A stretch of DNA of 64,000 bases from Takakia lepidozioides (GCA_030704615.1 CM060734.1:29698001-29762000), one strand, 5' to 3'. Positions 1 through 47,157 are shown, counted from the first letter of the stretch. The notes: generated from the sequence alone by a model not told the origin. Translations and numbers: made by a program.

Positions 1-2659
1 GGAGCTACCAAGGGGCCACGTAGGTACTCTGGAGCTGTGGGCACCATCGAGCTTGATGACTTTATACAAGAGTTTGATAGTTGGTGTGATTTGCAGCAAA
101 TGCGCAATCCACAATTGTTTATGCCTTAAAGGGCCGCCCATGGATGACTACCATGAATTGAGGCAGGAAAATGAGGTGGAGATTGAGGAGTGGCGACAAT
201 ATTGGTCACCTGACTATGTCTCCATCACTAGAGGCACAACAGCAAGATCCATGGCAACAATGGCAGCAGCTACACCAGCGGCTTCTGCAAGTAGCAGTGG
301 AACAAGTGAGTCAGGATCAGCTAGGCCATCCACTGCCGTTCCTGCCGTTGCACCAACACCTGTGCCTGCTTTCAACCCGATTGTGGAGTTCTTCCAAGAG
401 TTGAGAAGGAACTACCAGGGGGTGAGAACAGAGAAGTTGCGGAGCTTGCAAGAGTTCTAGCGAAAGCCTACTGAGAGTTTGAGGGAGGCTTACACTCGCA
501 TGAGGCGCTTGATAAATGTAACCCAAGGGGTTACAGAAGCTCAAGCAGTTCAATTCTGGTATGGCATGTTGGACAAGGAGCTGAGGAGAGGGGTGCGGGA
601 TGCAACTCTCCTACAAGTGGCCCAACCCACCCTAGCAAATGTGTTTTTGCTAGCCGAGCGGATAGAGCTCAACATAGTGGAGGAGCGGGTGGTTATGGTG
701 GGGTTTGGCAAGGAGACACAACGAAGTGGGGCTCCCAGCCAACAACAACCAACTCCCCAACGTGCTCAAGGCAACAAGGGGGCTCAGAAGAAGCCCAGGG
801 AAGGTCATGAGAGAGGATCTTAGATGCAAATGTCTCTTCCTTCATTCTCAGGCCAGCAACAGACGAGTGTGTCATGTTGGGATTGTGGAGGACCTCATGT
901 CAAGAAGGATTGCCCGGAGAGAGGCAAAGGGCCGACACAGGCACAGCCTACACAAATACAGTGTGGACATTGTGGCAAGTACGGGCATGAGGAGGCCCAT
1001 TGTTATGACTTGCATCCTGAGCTACGACCAGGCCAGTTCCAAGAGAACAATGGTGGCCGAGGACGAGGCAATGTAGTCCAGAGAGGTAGAGGAGACAGAG
1101 GTGGTGGAGGTCGTAACCAAAACCAAGAAGCACAGGGTCAGGGTCAAGATCATGACCAAGGCATGGTGGATAGACTTGCCCAGCTATAGCAACGTCTTGC
1201 TGCCATGGCCACTACTCATGTTGCGCCAGCTCCAAGGCCTAAGGTTCAAGCTCCACCTGCACAATCTCCTATACCTAGGGAAGACCAGATTGGTATGGGC
1301 TTCATGTGTAGAGCCGCACTTGCAGGACCATTGCATGTGGACTCTGCAGTTGTTGTCACTCGAGCAACAACGCATGCTCCTGAGCCAAGAGGAGCGGATG
1401 TGGATTTTGATCCACAAAGAGGGGAAGCAAGTCGGCAGACAAGGCTTCCACAGTCTTTCATATTGGCTGAGACAGTGCCAACTATGCCATCGATGACACC
1501 CGCTCGCCCAAGTGTGTCAGAGGTAGAGTCACGAGTGCCATTGGGGAGAGTTGGTGTGGCTCGGGAAAGGCCAGTGGGTGGTACTGCAAAGCAAGGTGCA
1601 GCCAGTACATTGTTGGGGGCGGCTACAGCAATTTTCCAAGCTCCATTGTTTTCTGCCACGACAATTGCAATGCCAGAGATGCGGCTAGCTGCAGTGTTTA
1701 GACTGGTAGCTGTACTCTGTGAGAGTAGTGATGCATCGGCACTATCTGTGGGGATAGCGGATAAGGTGCAGTGCATGGATGCCCTGGATTCAAGGGTGAA
1801 GACAGCCACAGCTGCGCCATGGCAAGCAGCAGCTGCACGGTTGCAGTAGTTGCCAGCTAGGCCAGCCATTGAGCGCAGCATGGTGACTCCTGGGGTAGTT
1901 CTGGTGAACAATCAGGATGAAGTGTTTCAGTTAGGTGGCCCAACTGGGAGGAGGTATAGGCCACTGCGAGTCTTGTTGGACTCAGGAGCACAACCATTGA
2001 TGTTGGGGAGAGCAGCAATTGCAGGCTTGGGCCTTACAGAGACGGACTTGGAGCCTTGCCCTTTCCAAATTCAAACATCTTTGGGTGGTTCAGAGAAGGT
2101 GCGAGGGATCACACGCCATGAGCTCTTCATTCGATTGCAGCCGGATCATCCTACGAACGGCTCAGTCATGAGAGCATATGATGTGCTTGTTGGTGGGGTT
2201 GTGTTGTACCCCATGGGATTTACTCTGGACTTTTGGGAGGAAACGACATCTTACACGCCGGAGTGGCACTCAGGAGATGGCCGACGTGCACTGCTCCTAG
2301 TGCGGTTTATTGGGAATGTAGCGGTGGATCATAGGAACTCGATGCCCACATTGGCTGCATTCTCAGGGGTGGTGGCTTGGGGTGGTGAGCTCTTGGAGGG
2401 CAATAGCCATGCAGATGATAGGCCACCACCTGATGAGGACAAGCAATTGGCATACAAGGCTGAGTTGCTTCCTCATGTGCCTATGCATAGCTCACTGTGG
2501 GGTACAGTTGGGAATTTGCATCAAGTAGTAGGCGAGTGTGTGCAACAAGCATGGCAGGAGGCCTTTCCATTGGTGGGTGAGGGGAATTCAGTGACATCAC
2601 CTGGACCTCCTCAGTTAGCTCCATTGGACACAGTGCCCATTACCTGGCAACCACCTGAC

Positions 2660-3600
2660 TCAGGGATTTGTTTGCTAGACCTGTTTGGAGGCATGAGCAC
2701 TGGGCTTGCAGGAGTGTTGCAAGCTGGGATTAAAGTACGCAAGTACTTGTATGTGGAGAATAATAAGATTGCTCGGTGTATTTCTATGCGCCACATCGCC
2801 TTGCTCACACACCGGTATCCTGAGTTGTTGTCTCTCTCAGCAATTCAAGGGTATCAAAAGGCCTTGCCAGCAGACATTACCTTGCTGGGGGCGGAGGATT
2901 TGGACCGGCATGGTCCCATTGACTTGGTGATAGCAGGGTGGCCTTGCCAAGGACATTCTCCCGCAGGTCATGGTCATGGTAATGGTTTGCATGATGCAAG
3001 GTCGCATATGTTTTGGGAGATGTTGCGAGTGTTGTGTGACTTGCAAGTGAGGCAAGTGTAACCTCCAGCTTACATTCTGGAGAATGTTCCTCTCATGGGG
3101 GATTCTCGAGCCAGGGTTATGGCTAGTGTGCATCAGGTGCGGTCGTGGATTGGATCGGCGGTGCTCTTGGATGCAGCAACGGTGGGATCACGCGCGCATC
3201 GACCTCGATTGTGGTGGACCAATCTTGCACCACCACCAGAGCTGCTCAAGAGAGCATACAATTCCATTCAACGGCCACCCAATCTCACGGTTGAGGGCAT
3301 TTTGGACCAAGGGAGGTAACCACAAAGGGTGCGACATGATGACCGTCCACCTTTGGCGGTGGTCAATCGAGTGGGGCAGCCACGTACGGCCTTGCCTACG
3401 CTCATGAGCTTTCCCTCGTCTCATGCTTTTCGAGACAATGGTCCTGGGTTGATTTGGGACAGTGTGCTATAGCAATTGGTGGAGCCCAATGCGGATGAGC
3501 GAGAGCGGGCGATGGGGTTTGCCACCGGCACTACAGCTGTGCTAGCTCTGTCAGAGGCATCACGCCGACATGTGTTGGGTCAAGCAATGGATCTAAATTA
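2660..3600 (+). pseudogene. C5 DNA cytosine methyltransferase domain (DNMT3-like) in the gypsy polyprotein between protease and RT
   Basis: Motif I LLDLFGGMSTG (~2672), motif II YLYVE, motif IV IDLVIAGWPCQGHS (PCQ 2942-2950), motif VI YILENV (ENV 3080-3088), motif VIII AHRPRLWWTN (~3194), motifs IX/X ERERAMGF..LGQAMD. All are in the gag/protease frame, with stops at 3059, 3317 and 3470. Confidence 0.92.
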
Positions 3601-4142
3601 TTGGCTTATGCATGGTTGAGCAACGGAGATTGCAAGCAGTGGTGGCTACTTTGGCACTCCCATTGGATAGTGCATCCTCCCTGCCAACCGGGACGGTTGA
3701 GGCAGTGAGTGGGGGTGAACACAGGATCATGGGGTGCAAACACCCATGGCAGATGTGGGATGAGATACGGAAAAAGAGGGTCATTGGATCTCTCAAGGAG
3801 CAATATGAGGAGTGAGGAGAGCCATATACGAAGGATCAGTTGGAGGCCAAGGTGGCCAAGGCTCTTGAAGAGGTTGAGGATGTTTCTTTTGCGGAGGATG
3901 TTCTCAAGGTGGCTATGGCGGAGCAAGTGGAGACTACGCCACAGTCAGGGTGGGCGGATAATGCCCAAGAGGTTGCTATCTAGCAACCAAAGGATGCGTC
4001 TCCTACCTCCAAGCCTGGTGTACCCAAGGTTGCAGTCACTGAGGACAATTGGGAACCAGATGTCGGACCTACAGTCACTGGAGGAGAGAGACGGAGGATC
4101 CAACGATTTCTAAGGGCTTATAAAAATTTCTTTGCCTTCGGT

Positions 4143-5470
4143 TTGAAGGATTTGGGGAGTTTGAAGGGCCAGGAGATTCGTATTGATTTGGCAAGTGACA
4201 CGCCAATTTTTCGAAGGCCCTACAGGTATAGTGACATGGAGAGGTCTTTGATCCAGTCGCGGACTATGGAGTTATTCGAAGCTAGATTGGTGGAGTTGTC
4301 AGGCGGGGAGTATGCCTCAGCAACGGTGATGCCAGCTAAGAAAGATATCTATGGCAATTGGACAGAAAGGAGGATGTGTGGGGACTACCGTCCTGTGAAC
4401 CGTCAGACTAATTCCGATAGATATGCCATGCCAACTCCAGATGAGATCTTTGATGCCATTGGGCATGCAAAGGTGTTTAACACATTGGACTTGCGATCCG
4501 GTTACCACCAGTTGCCAATCAAAGAGGCTGACAAGCAAAAGACTGCATTCTTGGGGATTGACCAACATGGGAAGGATTGTTTGTACCAATGGCGGTTCCT
4601 ACCGTTTGGGTTGAAAAATGCCCATGCAAAGTTTCAGAGGGTCATGGATAGGATTCTTGCGGGGCTAGACTTCGCCCGGTGCTACATTGATGATATCATC
4701 ATCTTTAGTGCCACGGTTGAGGAGCATGAGAGACACCTTCAGGTGGTGTTTGAGCGCTTGAGAGCGCATGGGTTGAACTTGCACCCTGGGAAGTGCAAGT
4801 TCTTTCCAACCAGATTGAGTATCTGGGCCACATGATATACCCTGGAGGATTGGGTGTTCAAAAGACGAAGGTGGAGGCCATTGCACGCATTCCACGCCCC
4901 ATAGATGTTAGCAGAGTTTGTGCTTTCATGGGATTGGCAAACTACTATCGACGGTTTGTCAAGGGATTTAGCAGCATTGCAAAGGCTCTTACCAAGTTGA
5001 CCAAGGTGGGTCAAGAGTGGCAGTGGGAGGAAGAGCAGGAGGAAGCCTTTGAGGAACTCAAGGCTCGATTGACTTCTGCACCTATTTTGAGGCGGCCTAT
5101 TCGGGGGCAGCCTTTCCAGCTACATACGGATTGAAGTATGCTGGGGATTGGAGCAGTGCTCACACAGGTGGATGATGAGGGAAGAGAGTTTGTAGCCGCT
5201 CGAACAATGATGCCGAGGCGAAGTATAGTTCCTATGAAGGGGAGTGTCTAGCTGCGGTATGGGCAGTGGCACATTTTAGATGCTACCTCTATGGCAATCT
5301 CTTCACCCTTGTCACGGATCACCAACTATTGAAGTGGTTGATGGAGTCAGACAAGCTTACAGGGAAGCTTGCACGGTGGGCACTTATGCTTCAAGAGTAC
5401 GACTTCCAGGTGGTGCATCGAGCCGGTATAGTCAATCGGGATGCAGATGGGTTGAGTCGTAATCCATGCA
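4143..5470 (+). pseudogene. gypsy reverse transcriptase and RNase H (frameshifted)
   Basis: ORFs 4143-4835, 4793-5134 and 5266 onward carry canonical RT and RNase H motifs (YIDD, FMGLANYYRRF, LHTD, TDH). Confidence 0.95.
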
Positions 5471-5689
5471 CGAGCGAACATGATGATACTGGAGCTCGGT
5501 GGCATGGTGAGACGGATGAGGAGATGGTGCCAGGATGGCATGCATCTGCCTTTTTGTGCATTCTAGCAATGGGAGCTCAAGCTGGTCCATCCCATGTGAT
5601 TGGTCATGGAGATAGTATGCATGACAATCCAGAGATCAATGAGGAGTTTGGTGGTGCTAAGGATGTGCATGAAGATGCAGCAGTGTTGG

Positions 5690-6903
5690 CCCACCTTCAT
5701 ACCGGAGAAACAACAGCCAGTGTGACTGCTAAAGAGAGAGATCGGATCCTACAACGGGCCGAGAGGTTCAAGTGGGAGGAGACTCACCTGCTCCGAGTAT
5801 GGGAGGATGGACGAGTGAGAATTGTGCCTCATCCAACACAACGAACGCGATTGGTACGCCATGCCCATAAAGAGTTGGGACATTTTGGGGTGCGGCGCAC
5901 TCATAGTTTGCTGCAAGGGCAGTATTGGTGGCGGGGCATGCACACAGATGTGCAACAGTTAGTGGCAAGGTGCATGGTGTGTGATAGGGTGCGTGCTTCC
6001 TTTAATGCACCTACTCCACAATTGCATCGTTTACCCATCATGGGATTGAGATATCGATGGAGTCTTGACTTTGCGGGACCATTGCCACTAACGATGCGCC
6101 ACAACAAGTATGTGCTGGTGATGGTGGAACACTTCTCCAAATGGATTGAGCTGGTGCCATTGCCTGACAAGGCAAGTGAGGGGCTGGGTATGCATTTTTA
6201 GATCAAATGCTTAGCCAATTTGGTGCTCCAGCCGAGGTACTCACGGACCAGGGGAGAGAGTTCTCGAGGGAGTTTCGGGCTTTGTGTGAGCAAGCCTTGA
6301 TAGATCACCGCACTACTTCTCGGGATCATCCCGAGGCTGATGGCCTGGCAGAGAGGGTTGTACAAACAGTCAAACGAGGGTTGCGCAAGTATAGCTTGCA
6401 GAAGAGACTCTTGGGAGATTGGGATCTTCAACTACCTTGGTTGGCCATGGGTTACAGGTTTATCTACCTTGGTTGGCCATGGGTTACAGGTTACTTTCTT
6501 CTCTTCGGCCGAGAGCCAGATTTACCTACATCTATTCGCAGGGAGGCTGCAGTAGTCCTTGACCTTGATGATCCGGATGTGTGGACACGAGCATGTGACC
6601 AGCGGACAGAGTTGTTCAAGAGAATCATGCCTATGGCTTTTGAGAATCTTGCTATTGCCCAACACTGAGACACATTGAGGTATGCCACCATACGTGGAGG
6701 CGGATATCGACCGGGTATTCGAAAATTCAACCTTGGGGACTATGTGTATCTGCAGCAGACAACGCCTACAACCTTGGATGTCACAGCAAGACGTGTGATT
6801 CTAAGGGTCAGGGAGGTGTTGCCTTCAGAAGTGTTGATTCTGGAGGGTCGAGATGACATGATATGGAAGGATCATGTGCGCAATTGTGCGCCATGTTACC
6901 TCC
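5690..6903 (+). pseudogene. gypsy integrase (frameshifted; split by the MULE)
   Basis: HHCC zinc finger and DDE core; ends RNCAPCYL at 6902 and continues PHVDGRIDPNLAVVPAGLR from ~18252. Confidence 0.93.
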
Positions 6904-7680
6904 GAGGTAGCCTATACTATATGCGCACACAAATGCATGCATATGGGGAATGTATGCGTGCATACAAATTTTAGATATGCATAGGAACAATTTTATATGC
7001 ACAACACTTAAATAAGGGTACCCAAAATAAAAATAAAAATTGTGATTCATCTAATCTTAGGGTCCATAGTCAAAATATCAAAGGATGAAATAAGAATATT
7101 CTATATAGAATATTCCATATTCATTGTATTATTATTCCACATGGGTGAGTGTAGGAATGGGAGAGGAACATGTTGCTTTTATGGCTTTCCAACATGAGAA
7201 AAAAGGTCAAAAAATTAAAAAGTGACGAGGCACGGCTCCTTGTTAGATACATATGGTGAAGGTACGGGCTCTTCCAATGGTGGGAGTCTAGTTTGAAGTT
7301 CAGAATGGAGCAATGCTAAGGGAATGCTAGGGAGCTTGACAATGTGATGGAGATGGTCCGCCTGCGCATTTGGTAGTAAATGGCGGTGGCCCGCAAGGAA
7401 TTCAATTTTACAAAAAAGACTATTGATTGGTAATCGAACCCGCAATCTCATAACTTAAAAAACATAATCCTTACCAAACCACCACCCATTTAATCTTGTT
7501 ACATAGGTTTTGCAGTATCTATATATCTATCTTCTGAAACATTTTTATTTTACAAAAACATAATGTCCATCAGAGATAGAACCCACAACCTATCGGGTAT
7601 CAAGCCTAGTTCATACCACTACACTACCCATTCAGACTTTGAAACCCTAATGAAATGAAACACTAATGAGATAAAGATAG

Positions 7681-10600
7681 TCACCCTGTGTGTACATAAC
7701 ATGCACAATACTCATAAGGGTTGATCTTACTAATGATGAAATTTGATAGTGCTGAAGTGCATGTCGAACTTGCATTTAGGTAACTCACAGGACGTTGAAT
7801 GGTTGGAGTTACCACAGATGAAACCAAAACGGGTTGAGTATTTTGAAGTGCAGAGAGATGTGCTACATACAACGTCTGGTCCCCCTCAAGACCAAATACG
7901 TGACGTCCAGACTCGCGGGCAGCAATAAATGTAGAACCTGCAGGAAAAAAACATGCAATGATGATATTATATCGGATAACAGTTAATGATCATGAATCAG
8001 CTCAGAAGATTTTAATTACAAAATGGAGACCAATGCAACCTGTGCCAGCTGTGAGATCCAAATGCGGGAGCTAGGAGGTGAGCATTCTCCAACAACACTT
8101 GCATGAAGGCGGGACTACGGTCTCGCGCACCCCTCCAGGCTTGTTGAGGAGTTTGCATGGGTAGTGCAACATCTGGAATGTGGTTGTAGATGACATCCAA
8201 CTCAACAGGGTCTGCAAGGGGGTCCACAACTTTGCCAGACTCACGCAGTTTGAATAGTCCTCCTTGCTTGGTGAGGACATGGGCGTGGAAGAACCGGTCT
8301 GTTAGACGTGCCATTTCCACAAAACAGTGCACCCGGATGGTTTAATAATAGATATGAGAGTAGGAAGATGAAACATCAAACAATGAGATATTGAAGAGGG
8401 ATGATTTTTACCTTTCCTGTCTGAGTGTGTAGAGGGGTGGTATTGATGCAAGTATATTTCCTTGATAATACGGAAATAGAGCTGCCCCTGGAGTAAGAAA
8501 AGAGCTCCAATGCAAAGGAATCATCGGAGCCCTGCAAGAACACCAAGCATCCATTGTCATTCAATAGGTCATTAGCAATGGAGAATGCATATTCCCAATA
8601 CCGTTTATCAAAAGCATTCCAGGGAGGAACTTGTACACCATCCAAACAGCCCTGTACAGGCATTCCTGTTGGGCAGTCCACGATGATCATGTCCACAGCC
8701 ACAGGCACGCTTTTTCCATCCACAACACTAAACCAAGTTCCTGGAAACTGCAAACAACATACAGAAAATATAGGAGTCAATAGCCGGATGATGAGGATAT
8801 AAAAACATCGAAGATTCCTTACATTCAAGTTTGTTTGTTGGGGGAAACTCACATTTTTTAAGAACTCCATGAGCTCTTTCAAGGTCGCATCAGGAGATGT
8901 ACTTGAGGCCTCCACCATATCAATGAAATGAGTAGGCATGATCTTCATGCAATACATGCTAGGTGCACCACCAGAAAATGACACTGCACTGTAAGGATGT
9001 TCGCCTGCCTTTGGCTTGTTTCCTCGAGTAGTAGGTGCAGGCACTACAACACTGATTTGAAGGATGTGAAGAACTACCAATAGGACCACAGCAATAGAAG
9101 CCACACCTGCATTGACATCCGCACCTTTTCTTTTTCGTGATTTGCATTTTGGTACACCCACAACGGCAGGGACCACTTGGGCTACAGCGTCAGCGGCCTG
9201 TGTAGCAATCTGTTCTGCATGCTCTAGATCAAGAACATGGACTTCAGTGGAGATACCCCCTTCATCACTCACTGACTGCCTGCGAACACATTCCTTATGA
9301 AGTCCCATTTCTGCATAGGGGATAGTACCCTTGGGCATATCCAAATACCAACCCCCCCCTCCCGTGTTCCACACCCCAATCTTCCTCAATTGCAGGTGTG
9401 TACATGGAAGCTTGTTGAGCACCAAACTTCCAGGCCATCAGAAACTTGGGCTCAGCCTTAAGTCGATCACTTGGTACAAGCACAAATCTCATGTACCTAA
9501 AATACAAACACATTCAAAGTTATTGTGGAGACAAATATTTATGCAACCTGTTCAACAATTGAACAAGCACATTAAGAAACATGTATATCCCAATGTACTA
9601 GAAAAATACTTGAAGCATAGACATTTTTGACTTACAAGGTGTATACACTATCCATGTACAATGCAATGGAAAGATGGTACCTGAATAAAATCCGTCTCAC
9701 CACCTATTCCCCACCTGTTTGTTGTTCCCAATCATTGCCTCTGAATGGCCCCTTTGGCAATGAGAACTCTCTATGAAACAACTCATTGAAATGAGTCATC
9801 TTCCATGTATCCATGTAGTCTCCCAGACTCTCACTCTCTCCTTCCTCCAAGGCAACATGAAATTGGCCAAGCTGAGTGGTGTACAAGGCAAACTGAGCCA
9901 AGGCAACCTTGCGAAGCTGCCAGAAAATACAGTCAGTTAAATAACTATGTTAATGTGTCATCAACAAATGAATTAATTGCATTGAGAAGATAGTGATTGT
10001 ATATGTACCTGCCACCAAAAAGTCCTTCTATTCAGCCAAGGATCAAGTGTTGGCCCACTGATAGGCCCGGGTGGAAAAAATTACGGTCGTGAAGTGTTTG
10101 GTCTCCATTCCATATATGTAGCCATTCCACCTTTTCTTCAGGATCCACCCGGCGGTAGCAATGTTCACCATTTTCTCTTGGGTCATTTCCTCTGATCCTG
10201 CCTTTACACGTGACCAATGCAGTTTAAGTTCTTGGAGAAACCCCTCTCCAAGGGTTGGATCAGCAATAGGAAGCAACTTCACAAGCTGACTCTTGTGTTG
10301 CTCCCTTGCTTTCAATCCAGCCTGTCTCATTGTATCTTCAAGGCCCTCTTGACTTTTGGCCCCTCAGCAAGTTTGTAAGCTTCCCCCCCGCCATGCGTTG
10401 GGCCTCAACAATATCATGCTGCCAAAAGAACCAAAACAGTTCATAACATGAACCAGAGGTGAATCTTGTCTATGGATGCAAAGAATGAAACTTGGTTACG
10501 ACATGATGTTACCTTGTACAAAATCTTTGTCATTGCATGGACTATCAGGTTATACCAAGTCTTTCCTGCTTTCTTGATGCATTCGTCGTATTGCTCTTTC

Positions 10601-12942
10601 CTAAATACATTCTTCCATTCAGAGACAGTGTAAGGCCAATCATATTGACCTTGCAAACCAAGTGCACAAATTTGGATGTAACATGTGCCCTCTCTGTTGC
10701 CCTGCACATATAAAATATGATCATTAGAAAGAAGATGTGTATATGTACATCCATTGAGCAAGAACATGACAACATTGAACATGAAAGTAAATGAAGAATA
10801 GAAAAGAAACTCACACATTCACTCCATCCATGATGGACCTGAGGGAACCACGATTTTCAATGTCCGCATTGAGCACCCAACTTGTCACATAGACATGTCT
10901 TGACAAGTTGGCCCCATGAACTTCATTGATATAGGGATACCATGCTTGAAGCCTATGATTCCCATCCCAGACATGAAACTCTCCCCCTGAAGATGATGCA
11001 ACTTTGCTTGGACTCAAGATACTTCTCAAATTCATCATTGACTGTTTTCCAATGACTATCCCATGTAGAGATGATATCAGGACCTACATCTATAGTAGAT
11101 CCATCAATCCCCTCAACAGAAACATAGAACACGGCTGCTCCTGGATGGTATCCAGAATAGAAGTCTCATCTAAGCTTTAGGATGTCATTGGCAAGGGCGG
11201 GCCTAACAACCTGCATAGAAATCATGCGACACAATGGAATGTCCATAACTCCATCCTCAATGAGGAGGGACCTGAAAGTTACATTCAGATCTTGTTTCTT
11301 TTCCAGAATAATTGCCTGTTTGGCATCTAGAGAAAGAGGATCACTAGATGTTGTATCCTCTTCATACTCATCTGCCCCCCAATTCCCTGCATCAATGTCG
11401 TCAATAATGGTTGCAAGCGTCCCGGCCTCCACAGCTTCAGTTGTAGTAGTAATTTCCTAATTCCATAGACCAAAACAGTTCAAGATGTCAGTGTATGAGA
11501 AGAGCACATGTGTGAATGTATAATATGTAAAAAGAGCAGTTCAGTGTCATGGTTGCATGAAGAAAACAAATGAATTTGGATAGTCAACAAATTCCATGAA
11601 TATCCTTGTCTTTCAAAGCTTACAAACTTGGAGCAGAATACAGGCCTGAGCATCCCGACAGAGGACCTCCGACCACCTACGCCGGTGCATATGACACATA
11701 TGTGCAACCAACTCAAAATTTGACAAGATTTGAGGCCCTTGAAGAAAATTTTGCTCAAGGAGCTCCAAGCATATGCGCCGGCGCATACCATGGAAGGGAG
11801 GTTGTAGCCAAACATACAAGAGCACCTTGAAAGATCAAACTAGGCCTATGGAAGCATGTGGAGTTGTGGAGGTGGCAACGTAGAAGCTTTGAGATACTTG
11901 AATGCTGTGATCAACCAAAATAGGGAAGGTTCTGCAAGCGTCTGCGCCGACGGAGGTGGCAGCCTCGACACTTTGGAGCTTACGTAACACAAGGAATATA
12001 CAACAAAAAACCAAGCTCCAAGCATCTCTGCCGGCGGAGATGCTTGCATGGGTTCCTGAAACCTAGGAGCTAAGCAAAAAAAGATTGTGCTCAATGGGTA
12101 TGCGCTGGCGGATATGGCAGCCCAGCCCGCTCGGAGCATCACAACTTATGAGAATGCGGAGAAACAAAAGAGATGGAAGGGGGGAGAACTTCCTGAAATA
12201 TGTGAGCAGCCCTGCTCACGGGTCTGCGTTGACAAGTGGCAGCCTTGGCGCTTTGGAGCTTCCGTAACATAGGGAATATGCAAAAAAAACCAAGCTCCAA
12301 GTGTCTCCACCGGCGGAGACGCTTGCAGGAGGTTCCTGAAACCTATGAGCTGAGCAAAAAAAAATGTACTCAATGGGTATGCGCCGGCGGATATGCAGCG
12401 CAGCCCACTCGGAGCATCAGCAACTTTGAGCATGCGGAAACAAAGGAGATGGAAAGGGAGAACTTCCTGAAACATTTGAGCAGCCCTGCTGCACAGGTAT
12501 GCGCCGGCGGATACGCCAGCCCAACCCGCTCGGAGCATCAGCAACGTATGAGCATGCAAAAATAAATGGATCGGGGAGTAGATGAGCACTTCTTGAACAT
12601 GTGAGCATCCCAGCTCCAACGGTATGCGTCGGCGGAGGTGGCAGCCCACTCCTTCCAAGCATCAGAAAAAACCAAGGGGAATGAGCTGTCTCCGCCGGCG
12701 GAGACGATGTGTGTATGTGTGAGATTCGCAAACTTGTGAGAGTTGAAGTGAACTTAGGCACTGCGCCGGCGGAGGTGCTAGATTAGGACCAGCTTGGTGG
12801 GGCTTATGCGATGGCGCATATGCCTAAGTGCAGGTTATGAAAAAAAACAAAACTACAGCTTACCCTTCTCCGTCTGCAGCTTGCCTCTACCACCACCACC
12901 ACCAGCAACGCCTCCCCCTCGAGTGTCCTTCTTCCTCCCCAT
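7681..12942 (-). pseudogene. Multi-exon MULE cargo gene: ParB/Srx-like N-terminal domain plus C-terminal beta-class N4C/N6A DNA methyltransferase-like domain (degenerate)
   Basis: ParB-like DIPLCRMISMQVVR...FHVWDGNHRLQAW (~11250-10940). MTase motif IV-like VDMIIVDCPTG (~8696-8664), LLNDNGCLVFL, WRGARDRSP, then motif I LDLTAGT/G-STFIAARESGRHVFGLE spliced across a GT-AG intron at 8039-7938. Putative first exon 12942-12864 (MGRKKDTRGGG.., gtaag donor) is less certain. A stop at 11166 and frameshifts are present. Confidence 0.78.
11680..12816. repeat. Array of ~13 palindromic CGCCGGCG motifs within a ~280-bp tandem unit
   Basis: Cores at 11680, 11776, 11945, 12029, 12103, (12227), 12308, 12382, 12502, 12627, 12693, 12764, (12809). 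Perfect 18-bp palindrome gtctccgccggcggagac at 12688-12705. Offsets 12029->12308 and 12103->12382 are both 279 bp. Confidence 0.9.
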
Positions 12943-14379
12943 CGCCGCAACGCTCGTTGCTTCGGGGTGGATAATATAAGGCTGAGATTGCGGTGCCTCC
13001 ATCTCCCTTCGCAACGGGAGTCTCCAGGTGTAGAGACTAGAGACGTGTTAAGTGCTTGTGTAGTTTGTGTGTGTTTGTTTGGGGGAGTGGCAAGGATAAT
13101 GTGCAAGTAACTAAGACTACGTTAGTGTAGTAATGATACCGGGTTAGTCATGTAGTAATGACAACAAGTTTATAGAATGAGAAACAGTTTATTAACAAAA
13201 AGTAGAGTTTGTTTCATTGAATAGAGCATGGCTGTTGGTAAGGTTGTGGTGTGTTTTCCACTAAGATGCGGGTTCAAACCTGCCCCCGCCAAGGAGAGCG
13301 GGGGGAAAGGGGGGCGGGCCAATTAGCCAAATCTGAAATGTGAACCTTTTTTATACACTCTGGCGTTAGTGCTTTTTGGACTACATGGGTTACACGTGGA
13401 TCCTTAGAAGATGGTTGTACGATTGACATGTTACTTGTGGCGGCGCCTTCATAATACAATATAAAGTAAGTGATTAAAGTAACTAAATATTTTTTAGGGT
13501 GTCTTAATCAATTTAATTGGTTTTAGAGTCAATTGTCGCCACAAATACTTGTACTCATTACTCATACATGAGTAATCAAAGAACAAATCAACATACATGT
13601 CATGGGATTTGATTGTAAGTAAATTGTGCCATCTAGTGTGTCAGTTCATAGCTGGACGATTAATCAACGATTGGTTGTAAAATAAATGGAAATATGCAAA
13701 GCATTTATGTTTCATATGCTCATAAGAAGAAGGCAGTACATTGGATTCTAAGATCTCAACAACGGCGCTGTCGTCTTAAAAATGGGGGTAGTCCATTTAA
13801 TTGTTTCTGTCAGAGAATAATATGGATGGAGCACATGCCTCAAAAAATTGGACCTTCTGGATTGATGATACACATAAGTAATGTAAGCCATTTAATGTAT
13901 TTTCATAAGGTCTTGCAAGATGTGGCGCTTTCATTCATTTTGCATCTTCTCTCAAACTTTGAGGGCATTGCCAATGTCTACACCAAAATATGCATTGCTT
14001 TCATGTCCACCTGATGCAAAATGGTTCGTTATCCTTGCAATGGAAACAAGTGCATTATATCCCAGAACCTTGGTTATGCAATAGATTCAAACTTGTCCGG
14101 GTTCAGTTTTTTGGAGGATGATGGAGATGATGATGCCTCCACATGTTGCTTCCAGTTTTCAATGACGGCCAAAAGTAATGGATTGTTTCCAGACACTTTC
14201 TCCAAGTACCGTGTCACAAGATACGAGCTATACACAGTCACATGATAAGAGCACACTTCTATTGCAAGAAAGAACGATCAAGCTGCAACAAATGGGAGTT
14301 GTAAATTGAAGGAGGAGGTTGCAGATTCGGCGAGCTTGGGGTCTCATAATTCGGATTGTGTTGAGGTTTCTAAGAGTGT

Positions 14380-17300
14380 ATTTTGTGGATCTCAACTCCT
14401 CATCTGCTCACGGTCTTGCTTCACGACATGAAGCCTCGGAAAACTCCATTGGACAACACCACGTCTGATTGTTGCGAATCTACGAGGGGTTTATCTTCAT
14501 CTCCACGACTAGCAGGGAAGGCTACATCTGCATTCCTTCTGGTGTGTTGTCCATTTTTGAGTATCTTGGCCACTGCTCCGAGAAATGGATCAAAAGGAGA
14601 GCTTTCTACCTTGGACTATAGTCACATTCCAGTGCATCGTGGTCGGTTTCTTCCTCGAGCTTTTGATGGAAAAGTGATCCACGAACTCCCCCCCCGTGGT
14701 CAACTACGTACGGACGTGGTTCACAGTCCCTCCAAGGCATGGATCGCAAGTTTGATGGTCATCCTTGGTGCAAGACCATCCTACAATAGTCGGGTGTTCC
14801 AGATCATGTGAAATGTATAAGGTTCTTTGTGTTGGAAAGCTCATATGTCAAAGCAGCACTTGCCCTTCTTCAAGAAAGAGGAGAACGGAATGACCGCTAT
14901 TGGGAAGGCAATGCAGACAAGGTGTTCATTGCAGGAGCCCCAGTTTCTTCAACCAGTTCAAAGTGTAGTTTCTGCAAGAAAGACCTTTCTGTGAGGCGCA
15001 TTGTGGGGCAAAAATGTACTATGTCCAAGTTCCCTTCCAACATATTCGTGTTGCAGTTCACGTTGGGTTTCATAACCAGTTCCAAGTGTAGTTTCCAAGC
15101 AAAGAAAGACCTTTCTGTGAGGCGCATTGTGGGGCAAGAATGTACTATGTCACAAGTTCCCTTCCAACATATACACGTGTTGCAGTTCACGTTGGGTTTC
15201 ATAACCATCCATGTGCCAAGGGCGAGAATAGAGAGGCTGCGGAAAATGCATCAAGCATGATTCAAGAGCACGTTAAGATGAAGCCATGGTCGACCCCGGG
15301 AGCTATTTCCTTGTCAATGGCCCAAAAGCTCTTGATTGATCGAGTTCTTGTGGCTGATGGCACAGAGACAGTACGTCTTGAGGGAGAGGCTTTGGAAGAT
15401 ATTCTTGAAGAGTTTGCCCATGTTTGTAGCCCCAATGTGAAAAACAAGGTCGCATCTGCACGTGTCAATTCCATCATGTCCATATTGGAGTTGAAGCGTC
15501 TGAGTACATACCATTTCATTCACAGCAATCTCCTTCCAGGCCAGCATACTTCTCATCTCCCCCATGTTTTCAAGATGTCTGTTGCTGGTCCCGGGAGTGG
15601 TGTTGATCTTGTGCGTCGCATGAGTGAGGGGGATCTACGCACAAGTTGGGTAGTATTTGACCATGTCAAACGCATCAAGGATTGGACAACTCTTGCGTGT
15701 CATGTCTATGAACCATATGTCAAGCGAATGATGACCATTGCCATTTGCGATATGAAAACAGAGGATGCAGATGCTCAGGTGTTATTCTGGGAGATGATCA
15801 ATGAACAAGCAAAACTTGCTGGCTTGAACAAACCAAATTTTGCTGGCTTCATGGCGGATGCAGCAGGAGCGAATTGGGCTGCTGTTCGAAGGGTTTATGG
15901 ATCTGATCCCAATGTCCCAATGGAAGGTAAAGAAAGAACATGTTTATATCATTGGGCTGAAAGCCTCCGAAGACACACCAACGACTATATCTTGGAGGAC
16001 TTCCGTGAAAGGCACACTCAGCTCTGTTATGAATGGAAAGATAGTGCTACCTTGGAGGATGCTACAACCACATACATTGCAATTCGGGCTTGGTGGCTCT
16101 CTTCAGGAGCATGCACAGAAAAGAGTCTGCCAAAACTGGATTCATGGCTTGCATGGTGGCACTACAGATATCGAATGTGGGGCCAATGGATGAGAGAGGA
16201 CATGGATGTGGAGGCAGATGCAGATATGCCTACCACTAATTTGTCTGAGGCAGTCCATTCTGCTTGGTGGAAGACAGCAGGCAATGGGAAAAAAATGAAG
16301 GTGGATCTATATGAGGCCACCATGCATGACATGTCACGAGCTCTTTTGCAGCAGGCAACATTTTACAGGCACACCACAGGAAAGACATGGGGGACGGGGC
16401 CCGACAAAGAGGAGCTCATGTTGCGTCAAGCAGCTAGATCTAATAGCCCAGCAAAAATGGGTAAGGTTGTACGTGGCATAGTAGCTGGAACACCCATGCA
16501 CACAAGGGGGGTTCAATTGGAGGGAGACAATCGCACTATTCCAGTCAAACGCAAGTTAGGCGATGAGCATGGTGGGCCAAACGAATCTTGGAGGTGTGAT
16601 ATGAATGTAAAGACTGTTCCAGTGCGCGCCACTGGGATGCCCAGTCCACACCAGCCATCTAGGTTTGTCAGCTCCAAATCAAGTCATGACATTCCTGGTT
16701 CTTCGACTTTCTGTGAGACAAATCCACATGTTGCTATCCCTCCTCAGCCAATGCAATGGGGAAATCCAGTGAGAGAGACACAAGACTTTTCCGATGCATT
16801 GTTCAGGATTCAGCGGACAGGTCCTGCTTCCATGGTTCGTTGTTCTGCCTTGGTTGGAGTTTCCAAGATAAATGCAAAGCGCTCATCAGGAAAGGTAAAG
16901 GAAGTCCTGCACCTTGCTTCACTGGCAAGTTACTAGCACCGAACATGAAAGAACCAAAACTGCAAGTTTTTTGGTTTTGCCCCACAGATGTTTTGTCGTG
17001 TGTTGGAGGGACCGTGCCATCCTATTGCTTGGGAAAACCGGGTATACCTAACGTGTGGCCTGTGAAGGTTGGAACCAACCTTACACAAGAAGAGGTGGAC
17101 AACTTGACCCTTGCAGGTTTTCGACTAGTCCATCCTCCCAACGTTCCTGATCCGAACTTTCCTGTGGGACCACTTCCAGTGGAACAACATATTCATCAAG
17201 GTGTTGTCCTTCCTGTGGGTAAGTATCCCACTACACGCTATGGGGTGCGCATTCGGCGTCGGGATCCGACTCCTCGACACTTGAGTCGCCAAGAGTCAGC

Positions 17301-17625
17301 GGAGACTCTTATTGCTGAGGTTCGTGGATTCAGAAACGTGCCTCAGCCAGGTTATGGGAGAATTTACCAGCTACAAACAGAGGGATCTACCAGAGCAGGA
17401 TTGGTTTACAATGTATACATTGGTCAGTTTCCATCTTGTGATTGTCCCGACTTTGATGAGCTATCTGTCAAGAAGAAAAAACAAACATATCTACCTTGTA
17501 AGCACATGTACTTCATGTACAACGTGCATCTAGGATGCGCCGGGGCTTATGAGATCCACCAACCTTCCCTTAGCCAGTTAGAGGTTAGGGCTATGCTAAA
17601 GAAGGACCCTAGTTCAACTTCTTAG
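14380..17625 (+). pseudogene. MULE transposase with Cys/His-rich N-terminus, DDE core and C-terminal SWIM finger (frameshifted)
   Basis: FDHVKR..FMADAAGANWAAVRRVY..TCLYHW..TTNLSEAVH (D..D..CxxH..E); SWIM CDCPDF..PCKHM. A ~125-bp tandem duplication at 14950-15205 and a frameshift near 16870. Confidence 0.88.
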
Positions 17626-18251
17626 TGACACATGAAATGCACAAAAAAAGAACCTCTAACTTGTGCCGTTCATTTTCATGCATGTGACATGTAATTATCT
17701 TGTTACTACTTTATTCCAAACATGACACATAGCATTTGTTAGTACAGAAGTTCCTATTTTGGTTAAAATGGAACTTGTGTACCTGTCATACAAGTTTTCA
17801 AATTATAGAACTGCTTGGCATTACAAACAGACATGCAATGTGGTGGTTCCAAACATGACACATATGCATTTGTTAGTACAAAAGTCCATATTTTGGTTAA
17901 TATGAAACTGTTTTCCTTGAATACAAGTTTGCAAACTATTACTTTGGCCAGGGATCTTGTATTCTCTTCAGTTTAAGGTGGTGCATTAGTTGGAGTTAGT
18001 GGTCACATGCATCTTTGACCATTGACTACTGATTTTGTTAGCTAAGATTTTTTTATTTTTTATTTTTTTCTATATACATATGATGTATCATTTGCATATG
18101 CAATAAATACGTCGTATTCTATGTTATATAACTTCACTGCATACAATCTACAATGTGTGCATACAAATTTGTCACATGCATATATAATAAGGGATTTTGT
18201 GCATGCATGCACGCAACCTGTGCATATGGAATAGCAACCCCCGTCACCTCC

Positions 18252-18310
18252 CACATGTGGATGGGAGGATAGATCCCAACCTTGCAGTGGTACCTGCAGG
18301 GTTGCGTTGG
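18252..18310 (+). pseudogene. Remainder of the gypsy integrase C-terminus after the MULE
   Basis: PHVDGRIDPNLAVVPAGLR continues directly from RNCAPC(H)L across the TSD. Confidence 0.8.
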
Positions 18311-18399
18311 GAGGAGTACTTAGAGATATCCAACTCTTCTATCTTGGAGTTTCCACCTCGGATAGCGAAGGGATGGGTGAGTAAAAGCCGCTCGGGGGC

Positions 18400-18941
18400 G
18401 ATTGTGGCATAGCTTTCTAGGCTTGTGTGCTTATATTGTATGTGGACAGCGATGTATGTTGTGGCACAATGCTTAGGTGCATGACAACTGTCATGGTTTT
18501 AGTCATGGTTAACTAGAATTACCTACTTCTAGTTAACTAGGACATTTTGGATATTTATATGTGCATTTTGTGTGTTGGGACTTCATTTGGTCTTATATGC
18601 CAAGTGAGGTATCAAGCCTCACTTGGGACATGGGGATGGGTTTTCCCCTTGTGAGGGTCGAGGAGGGCTCATCTTCTTGTAGTTGAGCCTCCATGAGCCT
18701 CTCCCACCTCTATAGCTTTAGGTATTGAGAGGGAGTGTGGTGAGGGCTTTGTAGGGTGGATTCCTTTAGCAAAGGTGCCCTTGGATTGACTTAGTTTATG
18801 TGATTGAGTGGATTCATGAGTGGAGTGTTTCCATTGTGTGTTCACTTTCATTATCATTGTGGCATAGCTTTCTAGGATTGTGTGCTTAGATTGTGTATGG
18901 ACAACGATGTATGTTGTGGCACGATGCTTAGGTGCACGACA
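18400..18941. mobile_element. LTR remnants: a partial LTR end (to 18486) followed by a TG..CA LTR (18489-18941)
   Basis: tgtcatgg...ggtgcacgaca; 18400-18486 repeats the end segment; reverse-complement homolog at 21674-22235. Confidence 0.75.
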
Positions 18942-19544
18942 CTTTTGCCCATGTGCTTTGTGGGACATCAACATCAACTCGGAACCCTTTCGTGTACCCC
19001 AGTTTCTCCAGCTCCTCACCGCTTTCCTTCACCTCCCATCTAAGGCACTCCCACCAACTCTCCAATCACTTCTGCATGTGGCGGCCGAGTACCAGACGAC
19101 GTAGTTCACAAATTCTACACATATGCTTGAATGGTAGCCTCGCGCACATGACTGCAACATGCATGAATGTAAAAAGCCATGTACACATTGAGAAGAAATG
19201 CCCTATGCTGTGAAAGGTAAACATGGTATTTGTAGCTTTGTGTGGACAACAACACGTCAATGTTAGTGAAGTACTATAATATCAACCAACCACCACAAAG
19301 TGACACGTCATTCTAACTTCTATATGCCCCACCTACAATTTTGTGAAGTGAATCTTTGTTGGCTATCAGATTGCTTGCCACATATGACTGTCCCCACTAC
19401 ATCAAAACTAGGGAGCCTCACATTCTGACCAAAACTTTCCAGCAGAATGAGACTTCACGTTGCAAAAGATTTCATCACTTAGCTAGGAAGACAAGAAGAG
19501 GATGGACCCACCGGCCATAGCGGGCTAGCAAGTTGGTGCGATGG

Positions 19545-19809: not shown

Positions 19810-20890
19810 AGGCTTGCACACATGTTGCAAACGTAACAAACGCGATGTGGTTGCGCTGCAGTATCCCTTCCCACACCACTTGCTCATAGACCTCTCCAAA
19901 GGGCCTCCATCCCGCGCCGCTGTTGTGCATATCCTGGGATCATCATCCTCCATGCACCCCAATTTGGCATACAAGTCCACAAGGGCATAGTTCAGAACAA
20001 CATTTGCTTAATTCCAGCTTGGTCGATGTCATCACAAACCCCGTCTTCACTCATTGCGTACTCTAGTTAAGTGCAATTATGGGCTAGGCTGGTACCACAT
20101 CTCATTCAGCCATATTATCAAAACAGCCATGTATCCTTGTAGTTGCACCCTGCAACCTTGGCATACATGTCCACTACGGCAACGTTCAGAATCACATCAG
20201 ATACAATACCAGCTTTGACAATATCACCGTGGACCTCTGTACCCTTTTCCAGGGCTGCCAGGCATGCATTTGACATACATATCCACCAAGGCAGTGTTTA
20301 GAGTGACATCTAGTGGTACAATTCCAGATCTGATGATGGACCTTTGCGTCCTTTCCAGGGCTACCAGGCTCGCATTTGACATACATGTACACCAGGGGAA
20401 TGTTCAGAATGACATCAGGTACAATTCCAGCTTTGTTGATGTCACCATGAACCTCTTGGCCCTTTCCCAGGGCTGCTAGGCTCGCATATGCATATTAACA
20501 AACACAAATGAACATGACCTGGTTTGGCTTCATCCTTTCCCACATCATTTGTTCTTAGGTTTCCAAAGCCTTACTCCCACACCTATGCTACACACACCTT
20601 ACAATCATGGCAGTCCACAACACCACATCTCATTTAGCCATGTCGTCGAACTCTCCCTTTGCATCAGGCTTGCTGCACCCACATTTGACATACATATCCA
20701 CTAGGGCAGTGGTCAGAATGACAACTAGTACAATTTCAGCTTTGACGATGGCACATGGCCAAGAGATATCCCAATATCCCGCCACCAATGGGTTCAATGC
20801 ATACTCTTATCACATTGGCAGTATCATGTCAAAGTCACTCCAACTAGATTCACTCAACCAGCTAACTTGCAGAATTCAACATGAAAATTT
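19810..20890 (-). pseudogene. PLS-class pentatricopeptide repeat (PPR) gene remnant with tandemly repeated motifs
   Basis: Repeated ~105-bp units encoding EVHGDIVKAGIVSDVILNVAVVDMYAK / NTALVDMYVKC / IPLVYMYVKC; MDLYAKLGCMED near the 3' end; heavily frameshifted. Confidence 0.7.
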
Positions 20891-21344: not shown

Positions 21345-23390
21345 CCTAGCCGTGCCACCATATTACGAGCTGAACTTATGGTCATCTTCGAAGCACTCTC
21401 CCTGCTAGATGTCTTCCCTCCTCCATATTACATCTTTACAGATAGCCTTACCTCACTCTTTCTTATCCGAAACCACATATCCCGCCCCTCCTCCCACCAT
21501 CACCACCCAGACTGCAACCTCATTTTAGCCATTGTTAACCTCACTATTTCCAAAAGCCACCCTATCCACCTCCTCAAAGTTCGTTCGCACACTGGCATTA
21601 AAGGTAATGAGGCTGCGGATCTACTTGCTCAGACAGACGCCTCTAAACCCCCAGTGGACCCTACAGATGACCCTGTCATGCACCTAAGCATCGTGCCACA
21701 ACATACATCGTTGTCCACACACAATCTAAGCACACAATCCTAGAAAGCTAAGCCTTGTGAGATACTTTAGCTTTCCTAGCTCTCTCACTCCTTGGTGTAC
21801 ACCAACACAAGTGCTACACTAATCCTTACACTCCGCACTCACAAGCATAGGTCATCTTCTTGTAGTGATAATGAAAGTGAACACACAATGGAAACACTCC
21901 ACTCATGAATCCACTCAATCACATAAACTAAGTCAAGCTAAGGGCACCTTTGCTAAAGGAATCCACCCAACAAAGCCCTCACCACACTCCCTCTCAATAC
22001 CTAGAGCTACATGGAGGTGGGAGAGGCTCATGGAGGCTCAACTACAAGAAGATGAGCCCTCCTCAACCCTCACAAGGGGAAAACCCATCCCCATGTCCCA
22101 AGTGAGGCTTGACACCTCACTTGGCATATGAGACCAAATGAAGTTCCAACACACAAAATGCACATATAAATATCCAAAATGTCATAGTTAACTAGAAGTA
22201 GGTAATTCTAGTTAACCACGACTGAAACCATGACAACCCTATTCACATCGCTCATACCCATCCCTTTTGGTTCATACACCCAATCCCAAACCCCCCCGCA
22301 CCCAAACCAATCCGTAATCTTATGACCACTATCACCCGTGAAGCGAACAAACAAGCTGCAGCATCTATTAGCCACACTAAAGTCCACATTCAGAAATGGA
22401 CCCAGTCCACAATCCTCCACCATAAGCTATCAAACCACTTTTGGCATACCAAAGCCACTACCGATGCACAAATCCGACAAACACTCAAATTCAGGTACGC
22501 CCAACACATGGGCCACCAACGTAAACACATATTCTAGCCACATCTTTTCCCATCTCCATATTGTCCACTATGCTCAAATACCCACCATGAACGTGACACC
22601 TGGCCACACCTCCTTAGTCAATGTACCCATCCAGTCATTCATGGCCTTCATATCACTCGGCACAACCATGCAGTTTGGCACATCCATAAACTCCTTCTGA
22701 GCCGCGCTGAAACTAGGTGGTTCTCACTCATTAACGCCGGCACCTACCAAGGCCGACCACCAGACCACACTGTACCACCATGGCTGCTCCCATGTACATG
22801 TATCCATTCACCATGCACCTGCCCCGCCAGACTGTGCCCTGATATTCTCCTTGTCCAAGGCCTACCCACTAACACCCCACCACCCACTACACCATCCCCA
22901 CAAATCACCATCCACTTCATCAAATTTACATACTGTAATGATCGCTACCCCAATGACTTGATCTTGGAAAAACGACAAAAATATGCCCCGCTCATCCTTG
23001 CAATCCGCCGTAGAGGTTGGACCACTGGCCCACTAACCGTCATCACTGCCGGTACTAGAGGCGGCATACATAATGATAGTATCAACGCTATACATGACAA
23101 TTTCAAAATCCCCATCCCCCCCATTCATAAGTGTTTCAAAGCAATCCACCTCATGACACTCCGATCCCTCACAACCATTATTACCAACAAACGGCAACTG
23201 GAATCCAAATCTACATTGATACCCTAGGTACCTAGGGCACCCCCTGGGTACCCTATGTACCCCTAGTTAGTTGGTGTCCCGCAGGACACCTGTTTTCTAT
23301 AGGGCCCATCCCCGAAAGGGGGTAGTAGCCGCAAGGTGAAGTGACTCTTAGTTACGTAGGCTTCGGCCGGAGTCTTCTCTCTCTCCCTCT
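21345..23390 (+). mobile_element. 5'-truncated Dualen/RandI-like LINE: RNase H, CCHC knuckle, restriction-like endonuclease, 3' UTR
   Basis: RNase H TILRAEL..FTDS..KVRSHTGIKGNEAAD; CPLC..DTWPHLLSQC..RHN; PDIL..FTYC..EKRQKY..ITAGTRGGIH (RLE); ends in a (ct)n-like tail; split by a solo LTR. Confidence 0.8.
21674..22235. mobile_element. Solo LTR inserted in the LINE
   Basis: TGTCA...TGACA ends, 4-bp TSD accc (21670-21673 / 22236-22239); inverted relative to the 18489-18941 copy. Confidence 0.8.
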
Positions 23391-24975: not shown

Positions 24976-26046
24976 CTAGAGAAACATCTCATTGTCAATG
25001 GATCCATTTTTGGAATAGGCTCACCTTGAATTGCCAAGCTATGGAAGTAATTTTGACTCCCCTCAAACACATACAAAGACCCTAACAGAAACAAATGTTG
25101 TTTGGCTTGAAGTTTTCACAATAGTTGGCTAGGATATCATACCGCATTTCTATGTGAGAGGCAGAAGCAAGAAAAATCAACCCATCGCTGAGATAGCGGT
25201 CAAAGCTCAAATTTCATACTTTGCAAAATCTAAAAACAAAAAAATCCCTACTAGAACATTAATCAATATATGAAACAAAGTAGTTTGTTGGCTCCTCCCT
25301 ATAAGGGAGAGACCACGCATTGGTGCCAAAAATGAGTAAAATCCTGATATACCTCCACTAGATAATACCTACATGAAGCAGATAATCCTCCCCCACTTAA
25401 ATGTTAACTTGAATGTACCTTGATTGGATAAGACCCATACGTGAAGGGTATATACCCTGATTCTCAAGTTGGGCTGCGTAGCAGCTCAAACCCTAACGGA
25501 AGTCCTCATATCCAAGAAGACGAAGTGGTCTCGAGCGAGGCCGCCAAAAGAACTCAGGCATTACTATGATGAAGGGAGATGAGTGGAGGCAATTCCATCC
25601 CGGATTGGGCGCTCTTGACATAGATTGTGTTTCCGTCAGGTTGATTGATGAAGATACTTTGCCGTTGATCCAGTATGGCCAGAGCAGGGTTTGCAAGCTA
25701 CCCAGCTTGAATATGCTCGGGTGGTCATGGTTCTCACCACTCACATGGTATGCTTTGTGGGTACTCCTGATAATGATGATTAAACTTACATTTCTTCTTG
25801 CTTAGGACGATCTCCCTTGTCCCTTTCTACACTACACTATTTCGGTGCAATATAACCCATGCATTCAGAGCATTCTAGTAAACTGTGTAAATCATGTGTT
25901 GAGCTAAGTCAGCTTTTACAATGACAGTGCAGGAGTTGTGGGAGATTCTTTGAACCGCAACATGTATATATCTCTAGTTTTCACCCTCAAGACAGCCTCT
26001 AAAAATGTCAAGAAATGGCGTCCCTTTGGTGCTGATAAGGGAGTCA

Positions 26047-26418: not shown

Positions 26419-26457
<39 letters not shown>

Positions 26458-27025: not shown

Positions 27026-27083
<58 letters not shown>

Positions 27084-46101: not shown

Positions 46102-47157
<1,056 letters not shown>

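Follow-up and report, generated by a model that had tools for sequence, protein, structure and literature searches.

A Ty3/gypsy retrotransposon of Takakia lepidozioides with a DNMT3-type methyltransferase at the end of its first open reading frame

The benefit to a retrotransposon of carrying the very class of enzyme that silences it has been in question since 2018, when KnitGypsy-Dnmt3, the sole gypsy example, was described from the alga Klebsormidium nitens with an enzyme inactive in yeast (de Mendoza et al., PMC5890265). As reported there, KnitGypsy-Dnmt3 combines Ty3/gypsy domains with an unpermuted Dnmt3-type cytosine DNA methyltransferase (DNMT) that has its catalytic residues and is under purifying selection, and it has DIRS-like repeats in the order A-coding-B-A-B. 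SymbioDIRS-Dnmt3, with a retrotransposon-borne Dnmt3 and the same repeat order, methylates CG de novo in yeast (PMC5890265). The EpiLTRs are algal long terminal repeat (LTR) elements that likewise carry a cytosine DNMT; theirs is DNMT4-related and accompanied by an adenine methyltransferase and a chromodomain, and their authors hold them distinct from streptophyte Gypsy-DNMT3 (bioRxiv 10.64898/2026.05.21.726589), the term streptophytes being used in PMC12344493 as well. Here we describe an element of the Gypsy-DNMT3 kind from a land plant, Takakia lepidozioides. Positions 1-6903 of the stretch analyzed (64,000 nucleotides, GCA_030704615.1 CM060734.1:29698001-29762000; hereafter the window) hold a degraded Ty3/gypsy coding region with gag, zinc knuckles, protease, DNMT, reverse transcriptase (RT), RNase H and integrase, that is, the Ty3/gypsy domain order with a DDE integrase and the DNMT as an additional domain. 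The kind is known from an alga; for its land-plant members, the conserved stop and the end structure described below, a literature search found no paper, the species table of PMC5890265 in its available text includes neither Marchantia nor Sphagnum, and the supplements of that paper and of later ones may list land-plant sequences.

An earlier note, made from the sequence alone, had placed a DNMT3-like methyltransferase between protease and RT, and all the C5-methyltransferase motifs it listed (I, II, IV, VI, VIII and IX/X) were seen in frame +2 within 2660-3595: FGG (motif I, 2684), E (II, 2756), PCQ (IV, 2942), ENV (VI, 3080), RAHRPRLWW (VIII, 3191), ERERAMG (IX, 3497) and GQAMD (X, 3578). 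The profile PF00145, whose failure to match the note had named as grounds for rejection, matched this frame with stops read as X (E=1e-10, 42 bits versus a cut-off of 22). A search of solved structures with the window domain returned DNMT3A as the top match (E=1.7e-12), while a profile built from 13 sequences ranked DNMT3A (E=5e-26) and DNMT3B/3C (5e-24) ahead of DRM-type enzymes (4e-12 to 1e-9), with bacterial enzymes and DNMT2 scoring no better than 7e-8 and neither DNMT1 nor CMT among its 55 matches. The predicted structure of the domain of a relative (L003; pLDDT 86) also matched DNMT3A (E=2.4e-20, TM 0.72). The domain is of the DNMT3 type, nearest to DNMT3 by both sequence and fold and not to DNMT1, CMT, DNMT2 or DRM; a DRM identity was ruled out because the motif order is unpermuted.

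The element to which this domain belongs was examined in related loci, namely the best 80 of 211 related metagenome stretches. The DNMT lies between protease and RT in all 36 loci that hold both, and intact ORFs retain it, so that the domain is integral to the element, as the note had held, and no later addition to one copy. Of the 76 proteins recovered by a protein search, the best are 57-70% identical and include records from Marchantia polymorpha, Calypogeia fissa and Sphagnum. Five open Gag-protease-DNMT ORFs in Marchantia (1278-1281 residues), which are unlabelled, each end 95 residues past the last motif, and the Calypogeia cluster holds two open frames of 1319 residues. In one Takakia run, 31,200 contigs cover the first 7.4 kb with the DNMT covered like the protease (summed contig depth does not equate to copy number). 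The window, Marchantia and the loci form one clade with support of 100/100 in both a DNMT tree (47 rows) and an RT tree (35 rows). These observations refute the idea that a host DNMT3 gene, or part of one, was inserted just once, into the window copy, or that the fusion arose by chance; we assign it practically no weight.

The DNMT closes the first ORF (ORF1), which encodes Gag, protease and DNMT, and is separated from RT by a conserved stop. In related loci, 36 of 48 DNMT-RT junctions are in frame; the stop occupies the same codon in 35 of them and lies one codon away in the remaining one. The bases CAACCC follow the stop in 43 of the 48, and the matching position in the window, 3981, reads TAG CAA CCA. 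No variant reaching 30% of depth was found at this stop in three runs from two samples, whereas the nearby private stop at 3813 is variant in 92% of depth (run X1) and that at 3059 in >99%. It is because the 3981 stop is conserved across junctions and has no variant at that level in the runs that we place the end of ORF1 here. The frame shared by gag, zinc knuckles, protease and DNMT was borne out, since residues 58-1188 of an intact Marchantia protein (P0002) align as one block over window 125-3598 in frame +2; the stretch beginning at 53, which the note had included, is not gag in that frame, the start of gag being in frame +1 (1-126) with a shift at about 125. Likewise, the DNMT does sit between protease and RT and is part of a Gag-protease-DNMT polyprotein, but as its C-terminal domain and not inside a continuous Gag-Pol, RT being in a different frame beyond the family-wide stop. 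This distinguishes the family from KnitGypsy-Dnmt3, which has the DNMT in its Pol ORF (PMC5890265). DNMT and RT in one ORF, absent from the window, were found in Closterium P0326 and in P0078.

Plant viruses use UAG-CAR-YYA as a readthrough signal, and Pol is probably made by readthrough of this stop. The frames are in phase across the stop at the junctions counted above, CAA CC follows it in both the window family and the related family, and the Closterium and P0078 relatives encode the same domains as a single ORF. Several observations count against readthrough. The CAACCC of the related family misses the final base of CARYYA, only one of 48 junctions matching; that family has an in-frame AUG two codons past the stop; and no consistent RNA structure was found 3' of it (z 0.15, -0.43, -0.67 and -2.57). 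For these reasons we call readthrough likely and not established. The same points favor the alternative that the architecture is as described and Pol comes from reinitiation, splicing or a separate transcript; this appears a good deal less probable, the AUG being absent from the window family. If readthrough is used, DNMT output would match that of Gag and Pol would amount to a small fraction of it, and such capsid-like enzyme levels, as predicted by the conserved stop, offer a direct test of whether the element methylates its own cDNA.

Our preferred reading, which we hold somewhat more probable than not, is that an ORF1 of Gag, protease and DNMT is followed by a stop that is likely read through to RT, RNase H, integrase and PHD finger, and that the DNMT is likely packed at capsid-like numbers and likely methylates new cDNA. 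The DNMT would enter the particle as part of the ORF1 product, be released there by the element's protease and act on the cDNA ahead of integration. Release in the particle and action on the cDNA, to which we lean by a similarly narrow degree, are proposed by analogy with SymbioDIRS-Dnmt3, given its CG methylation in yeast. Some points pull the other way. A composition test for self-methylation was negative, CG depletion being 0.47 in the element and 0.49 in the rest of the window; the ratio of non-synonymous to synonymous substitution (dN/dS) within the related loci, which are decayed and of one family, is higher for DNMT (0.64) than for RT (0.42); synonymous divergence (dS) is near saturation in the cross-family comparison given below; and the 80 loci were chosen with an ORF1 query, so that DNMT-less relatives are under-sampled, while some of the loci represent one insertion.

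The main rival holds that an active enzyme is aimed at host chromatin, either at the target site or at the integrated copy with guidance by the PHD finger, or that the protein serves as a DNA-binding decoy against silencing. The lack of extra CG depletion suits it, as do the PHD finger that ends Pol in relatives and the many algal relatives that place the DNMT between RNase H and integrase, a position fitting travel with the integration complex. In the bryophyte branch, on the other hand, the DNMT is on ORF1 and the stop parts it from integrase and PHD finger, and the retained catalytic residues would be needless for a pure decoy; we regard this rival as possible but rather unlikely. That the DNMT is instead a relic, or serves an RNA-related or structural function with DNA methylation lost in bryophytes, we find improbable. 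The within-family dN/dS of 0.64 speaks for a relic, and so does the Klebsormidium enzyme, which weighs against the preferred reading as well, having given no methylation in yeast, a result called inconclusive there (PMC5890265). Between families, dN/dS for the window against the loci is 0.11 for DNMT (dS defined in 42 of 47 loci) and 0.09 for RT (dS defined in 10 of 32 loci), so that the purifying selection of KnitGypsy-Dnmt3 (Ka/Ks <0.2 on DNMT) has its counterpart between families and not among one family's copies. The catalytic Cys is present in 46 of 47 loci and in 68 of 71 proteins, the other three being gaps, and the motif VI Glu in 71 of 71; the unpermuted Dnmt3-type polyprotein domain with its catalytic residues is thus shared with KnitGypsy-Dnmt3. 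The between-family ratio of 0.11, this near-invariance and a fold and sequence nearest DNMT3 and distant from DNMT2 oppose a relic.

A search with a profile containing some flanking columns identified 621 clusters at E up to 1e-30. Named organisms among 20 representatives looked up were Closterium (four clusters), Klebsormidium, Calypogeia and Scenedesmus (one each). Three layouts were distinguished: Gag-protease-DNMT-stop in bryophytes and further relatives; Gag-protease-DNMT-RT in a single frame in the Closterium relative P0326 and in P0078; and RT-RNase H-DNMT-integrase-PHD in Scenedesmus and many others (29 of 140 new representatives). The last is a large group (P0047, P0056, P0082, P0170 and many more, Scenedesmus included) that separates from the rest in both the DNMT tree (100/97) and the RT tree (94/94). 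The position of its DNMT, after RNase H and before integrase, means that the domain either shifted within Pol or was captured twice. In a tree of element and phage sequences, without host DNMT3, DRM or CMT, the 43 element DNMTs cluster together opposite four phage enzymes; the phage C5-methyltransferases used as outgroup share just 22-28% identity among the ten listed. The first DNMT tree omitted eight gapped gene models and rows of <280 residues, the later tree consists of 47 chosen rows, and the RT tree was built without named gypsy reference clades. No relative of the element was found among the viral contigs searched.

Judged from these comparisons, the window element appears to represent the bryophyte branch of a DNMT-bearing Ty3/gypsy family that extends to charophyte and chlorophyte algae. 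The land-plant lineage proposed in the note has members in Marchantia, Calypogeia and Sphagnum and is in that respect confirmed, but as a branch of this wider family. K. nitens is represented by protein GAQ93235.1 (P0244), which has zinc knuckle, protease and DNMT in the same order at 38% identity over 317 residues; it is not sister to the bryophyte clade, falls in the unresolved base of the DNMT tree and is not confirmed as a copy from PMC5890265. While KnitGypsy-Dnmt3 belongs to an alga and its acquisition is placed in the K. nitens lineage (PMC5890265), the element described here has a land-plant host and relatives spanning chlorophytes, Closterium, liverworts and mosses. Intact, unlabelled Gag-protease-DNMT genes of Marchantia (e.g. 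Mp_4g09160, Mp_5g06330) bring the question of what the enzyme does into a transformable land plant with methylation mutants; genes of this type also inflate DNMT counts in bryophyte annotations. On one of the related contigs (L066), fragments of more distant DNMT-bearing gypsy families (5198-6078, minus strand, and 19111-19257; 37-52% identity) were observed, and several such families appear on this basis to coexist in one host.

The end structure differs from that of ordinary LTR elements. Two complete, identical flanking LTRs are absent; the layout A-coding-B-NN-A-B is common to the related loci (B followed by A in 10 loci), and the split direct repeats at window 18401-18941 resemble the DIRS-like arrangement of KnitGypsy-Dnmt3. 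Permuted repeats of this type are likely missed by LTR-finding software. The element ends read TGTCATG...CA(C/T)GACA. Among six distinct insertions in related loci, 4-bp target duplications are exact in four and have one mismatch in two, and TG...CA ends with such a duplication, as in Ty3/gypsy elements (4-6 bp), were found in relatives and in a 562-bp mini copy elsewhere in the window, the left end of the main copy preceding position 1. SymbioDIRS-Dnmt3 integrates by means of a tyrosine recombinase (PMC5890265), in contrast to the DDE integrase, TG...CA ends and target duplications found here. DIRS and Ngaro elements (tyrosine recombinase, no target duplication) were ruled out by the DDE integrase and the 4-bp duplications. 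Troyka elements, which live in animals and have CG...CG ends and 3-bp duplications (PMC12440569) but not the split repeats for which they had been considered, were rejected as well.

Comparison of the repeats points to a candidate self-priming mechanism. In the mini copy, the 14 nt just after A are complementary to an internal part of A, a match reached in 0 of 2000 shuffles. At both places a different 11-mer stands in the related family; 4 of 11 positions differ between the families, all of them matched in the binding site. The self-complement was found within one mismatch in 18 of 23 5' ends of loci, and the primer stretch lies about 31 nt 3' of a TATA box in related loci, a box that both window copies are without. 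A primer-site complement with compensatory changes is a signature of self-priming. The self-primer of Tf1 measures 11 nt. Self-priming has been predicted for Tcn1 and TAR elements, and the Tf1/sushi group and plant Tcn1 chromoviruses resemble the window element in a primer site that complements their own repeat, with no tRNA site (PMC6317226); those groups have ordinary LTRs and a chromodomain, whereas the window family has permuted repeats, a PHD finger (in relatives) and the DNMT.

The junction between B1 and A2 is an internal palindrome at which, the repeat comparison suggests, integrase cuts, probably on end-joined DNA; a staggered cut at CA-NN-TG would leave two-base overhangs like processed retroviral ends. 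In the proposed route, minus-strand synthesis would be primed by the first 11-14 bases of the RNA at the site that follows A1, and the plus strand would begin after the G-rich tract 5' of B1. The cDNA would then have a true terminal repeat, B-NN-A, with TG/CA integrase tips head to head in mid-repeat; its ends would be joined and, once the integrase has opened the palindrome, A-coding-B-A-B would be integrated with a 4-bp duplication. An identical A|B junction is found in 7 of 7 loci, and its sequence is that expected from joining the two predicted cDNA ends. Across six elements, 13 minority columns are shared between the B1 and B2 of an element and no difference between B1 and B2 is fixed; this sharing of private bases fits a B2 recopied from its own B1 in each cycle. 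HIV integrase is able to cut internal palindromes of two attachment tips (PMC1905944), and in retroviral 2-LTR circles integrase cuts a tip-to-tip palindrome and the circles can feed integration (PMC1905944, PMC4372172). In retroviruses, though, the palindrome is a side route at joined ends, while in the window family it is part of the repeat itself and sets the ends of all copies examined. The available text of PMC5890265 does not list self-priming, an internal palindrome or 4-bp duplications among the features of KnitGypsy-Dnmt3.

The alternative permutation A-B-A-coding-B, expected from random cutting of a two-repeat circle, occurs in 0 of 21 5' ends, which tells against this route. Right ends with B alone occur in 15 loci (one at a contig end) and could reflect double cuts, recombination or a collapsed assembly; they were not counted as evidence because loci L014 and L071 share a flank and differ in form. 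Taken together, the chances for and against the route seem even. If it is correct, integration via end-joined DNA would make a supposed dead-end product the family's main route. The widest version, a lineage as old as green plants that primes itself, pre-methylates its cDNA with DNMT3 at capsid levels, routinely integrates by joined ends with a DDE integrase opening the in-repeat palindrome, and keeps open copies in Marchantia, is tentative and, taken as a whole, rather unlikely. In one insertion seen in two loci (L051:6343-6457 and L065:8602-8716), an inverted B with purine tract and 3' leader replaces A and is joined straight to the primer site, which resembles an aberrant product of reverse transcription or autointegration.

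The features of the element in the window are collected in Table 1. The window copy is dead, because it has seven stops in frame +2 (458, 821, 1187, 1847, 3059, 3317 and 3470), three of them within the DNMT, frameshifts at about 125 (frame +1 to +2) and about 3597 (a small deletion, +2 to +3), and more frameshifts in pol. The Retrotrans_gag profile matched gag weakly (E=0.008), the Pfam scan of the window gave no match for the zinc knuckles, and Pfam matches for the protease were confined to the distant relatives P0244 and P0326. The integrase core contains a ~30-bp tandem duplication (6424-6490). A search with the PHD linker found the element to resume at 18243, behind an 11.3-kb insertion. 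The PHD finger, present in relative L056 (E=3e-9), was lost from the window copy by a deletion at 18310-18330, and deletions in L016 and L052 also reach B1.

Table 1 Features of the Takakia element and its insertions in the window.
Feature	Position	Strand	Basis or remark
gag	1..700	+	begins just 5' of position 1; frameshift ~125, stop 458; tblastn with P0002 and P0105
Two zinc-knuckle-like nucleocapsid motifs	860..1030	+	CxxCxxxHxxxxC in translation; matched in related loci
Aspartic protease, LLDSGAQ	1850..2300	+	50-55% identity to same region of intact relatives
DNMT3-type C5 cytosine methyltransferase, motifs I-X unpermuted, three stops	2660..3595	+	motifs, PF00145, structure and profile matches
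ORF1 C-terminal tail behind small deletion/frameshift	3597..3980	+	P0002 1193-1245 aligned in frame +3
Family-wide ORF1 stop, TAG CAA CCA, candidate readthrough signal	3981..3989	+	junctions of related loci; run variants
Reverse transcriptase	4050..4805	+	PF00078 E=4.7e-27
RNase H region, frameshifted	4806..5480	+	PF17919, PF17917
Integrase, zinc-binding domain and DDE core, frameshifted	5659..6903	+	PF17921, PF00665
Later 11.3-kb insertion, foreign to element	6904..18242	.	9-bp target duplication, one mismatch; a contig starts at 6904
Pol continuation, linker toward PHD finger	18243..18310	+	PHD finger deleted in window copy
G-rich tract, candidate polypurine tract	18392..18401	+	directly 5' of B1; same place in related loci
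Repeat B1, ends CATGACA	18401..18486	+	sequence comparison
Internal palindrome CATGACA-NN-TGTCATG, B1-A2 join, candidate integrase attachment site	18480..18495	+	same junction in related loci
Repeat A2, starts TGTCATG	18489..18855	+	contains 14-nt candidate self-primer at 18669
Repeat B2, element right end, CACGACA	18856..18941	+	79/86 nt identical to B1
562-bp internally deleted family copy (A, primer-binding site, 5' leader start, B)	21674..22235	-	TG...CA ends; exact 4-bp target duplication

The insertion that splits the element probably belongs to a Mutator-like family. It has short imperfect inverted ends and long ORFs at 15092-16936 and 16717-17625, in which a SWIM finger scored below the cut-off (E=0.002); no Pfam transposase matched within it, and the minus strand of the window has a related pair of ORFs at 61510-63263. 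The 562-bp mini copy, possibly a non-autonomous derivative, sits in a LINE-like stretch (ORF 22538-23227).

Elsewhere in the window, 26000-37000 on the minus strand is occupied by degenerate, non-LTR-like element(s) that show a strong G skew and poly-C runs, with a 39-bp tandem array at 35521-35780. A Copia-type element at 50723-55303 (RVT_2 E=4e-45, 52176-53210) has direct repeats about 4.2 kb apart and an internal duplication. Two genes were observed on the minus strand: an intact-looking, single-exon host gene at 46102-47157, whose product has a zf-CCHC_3 knuckle plus a long tail rich in Ser/Arg, and a broken PPR gene at 20155-20800.

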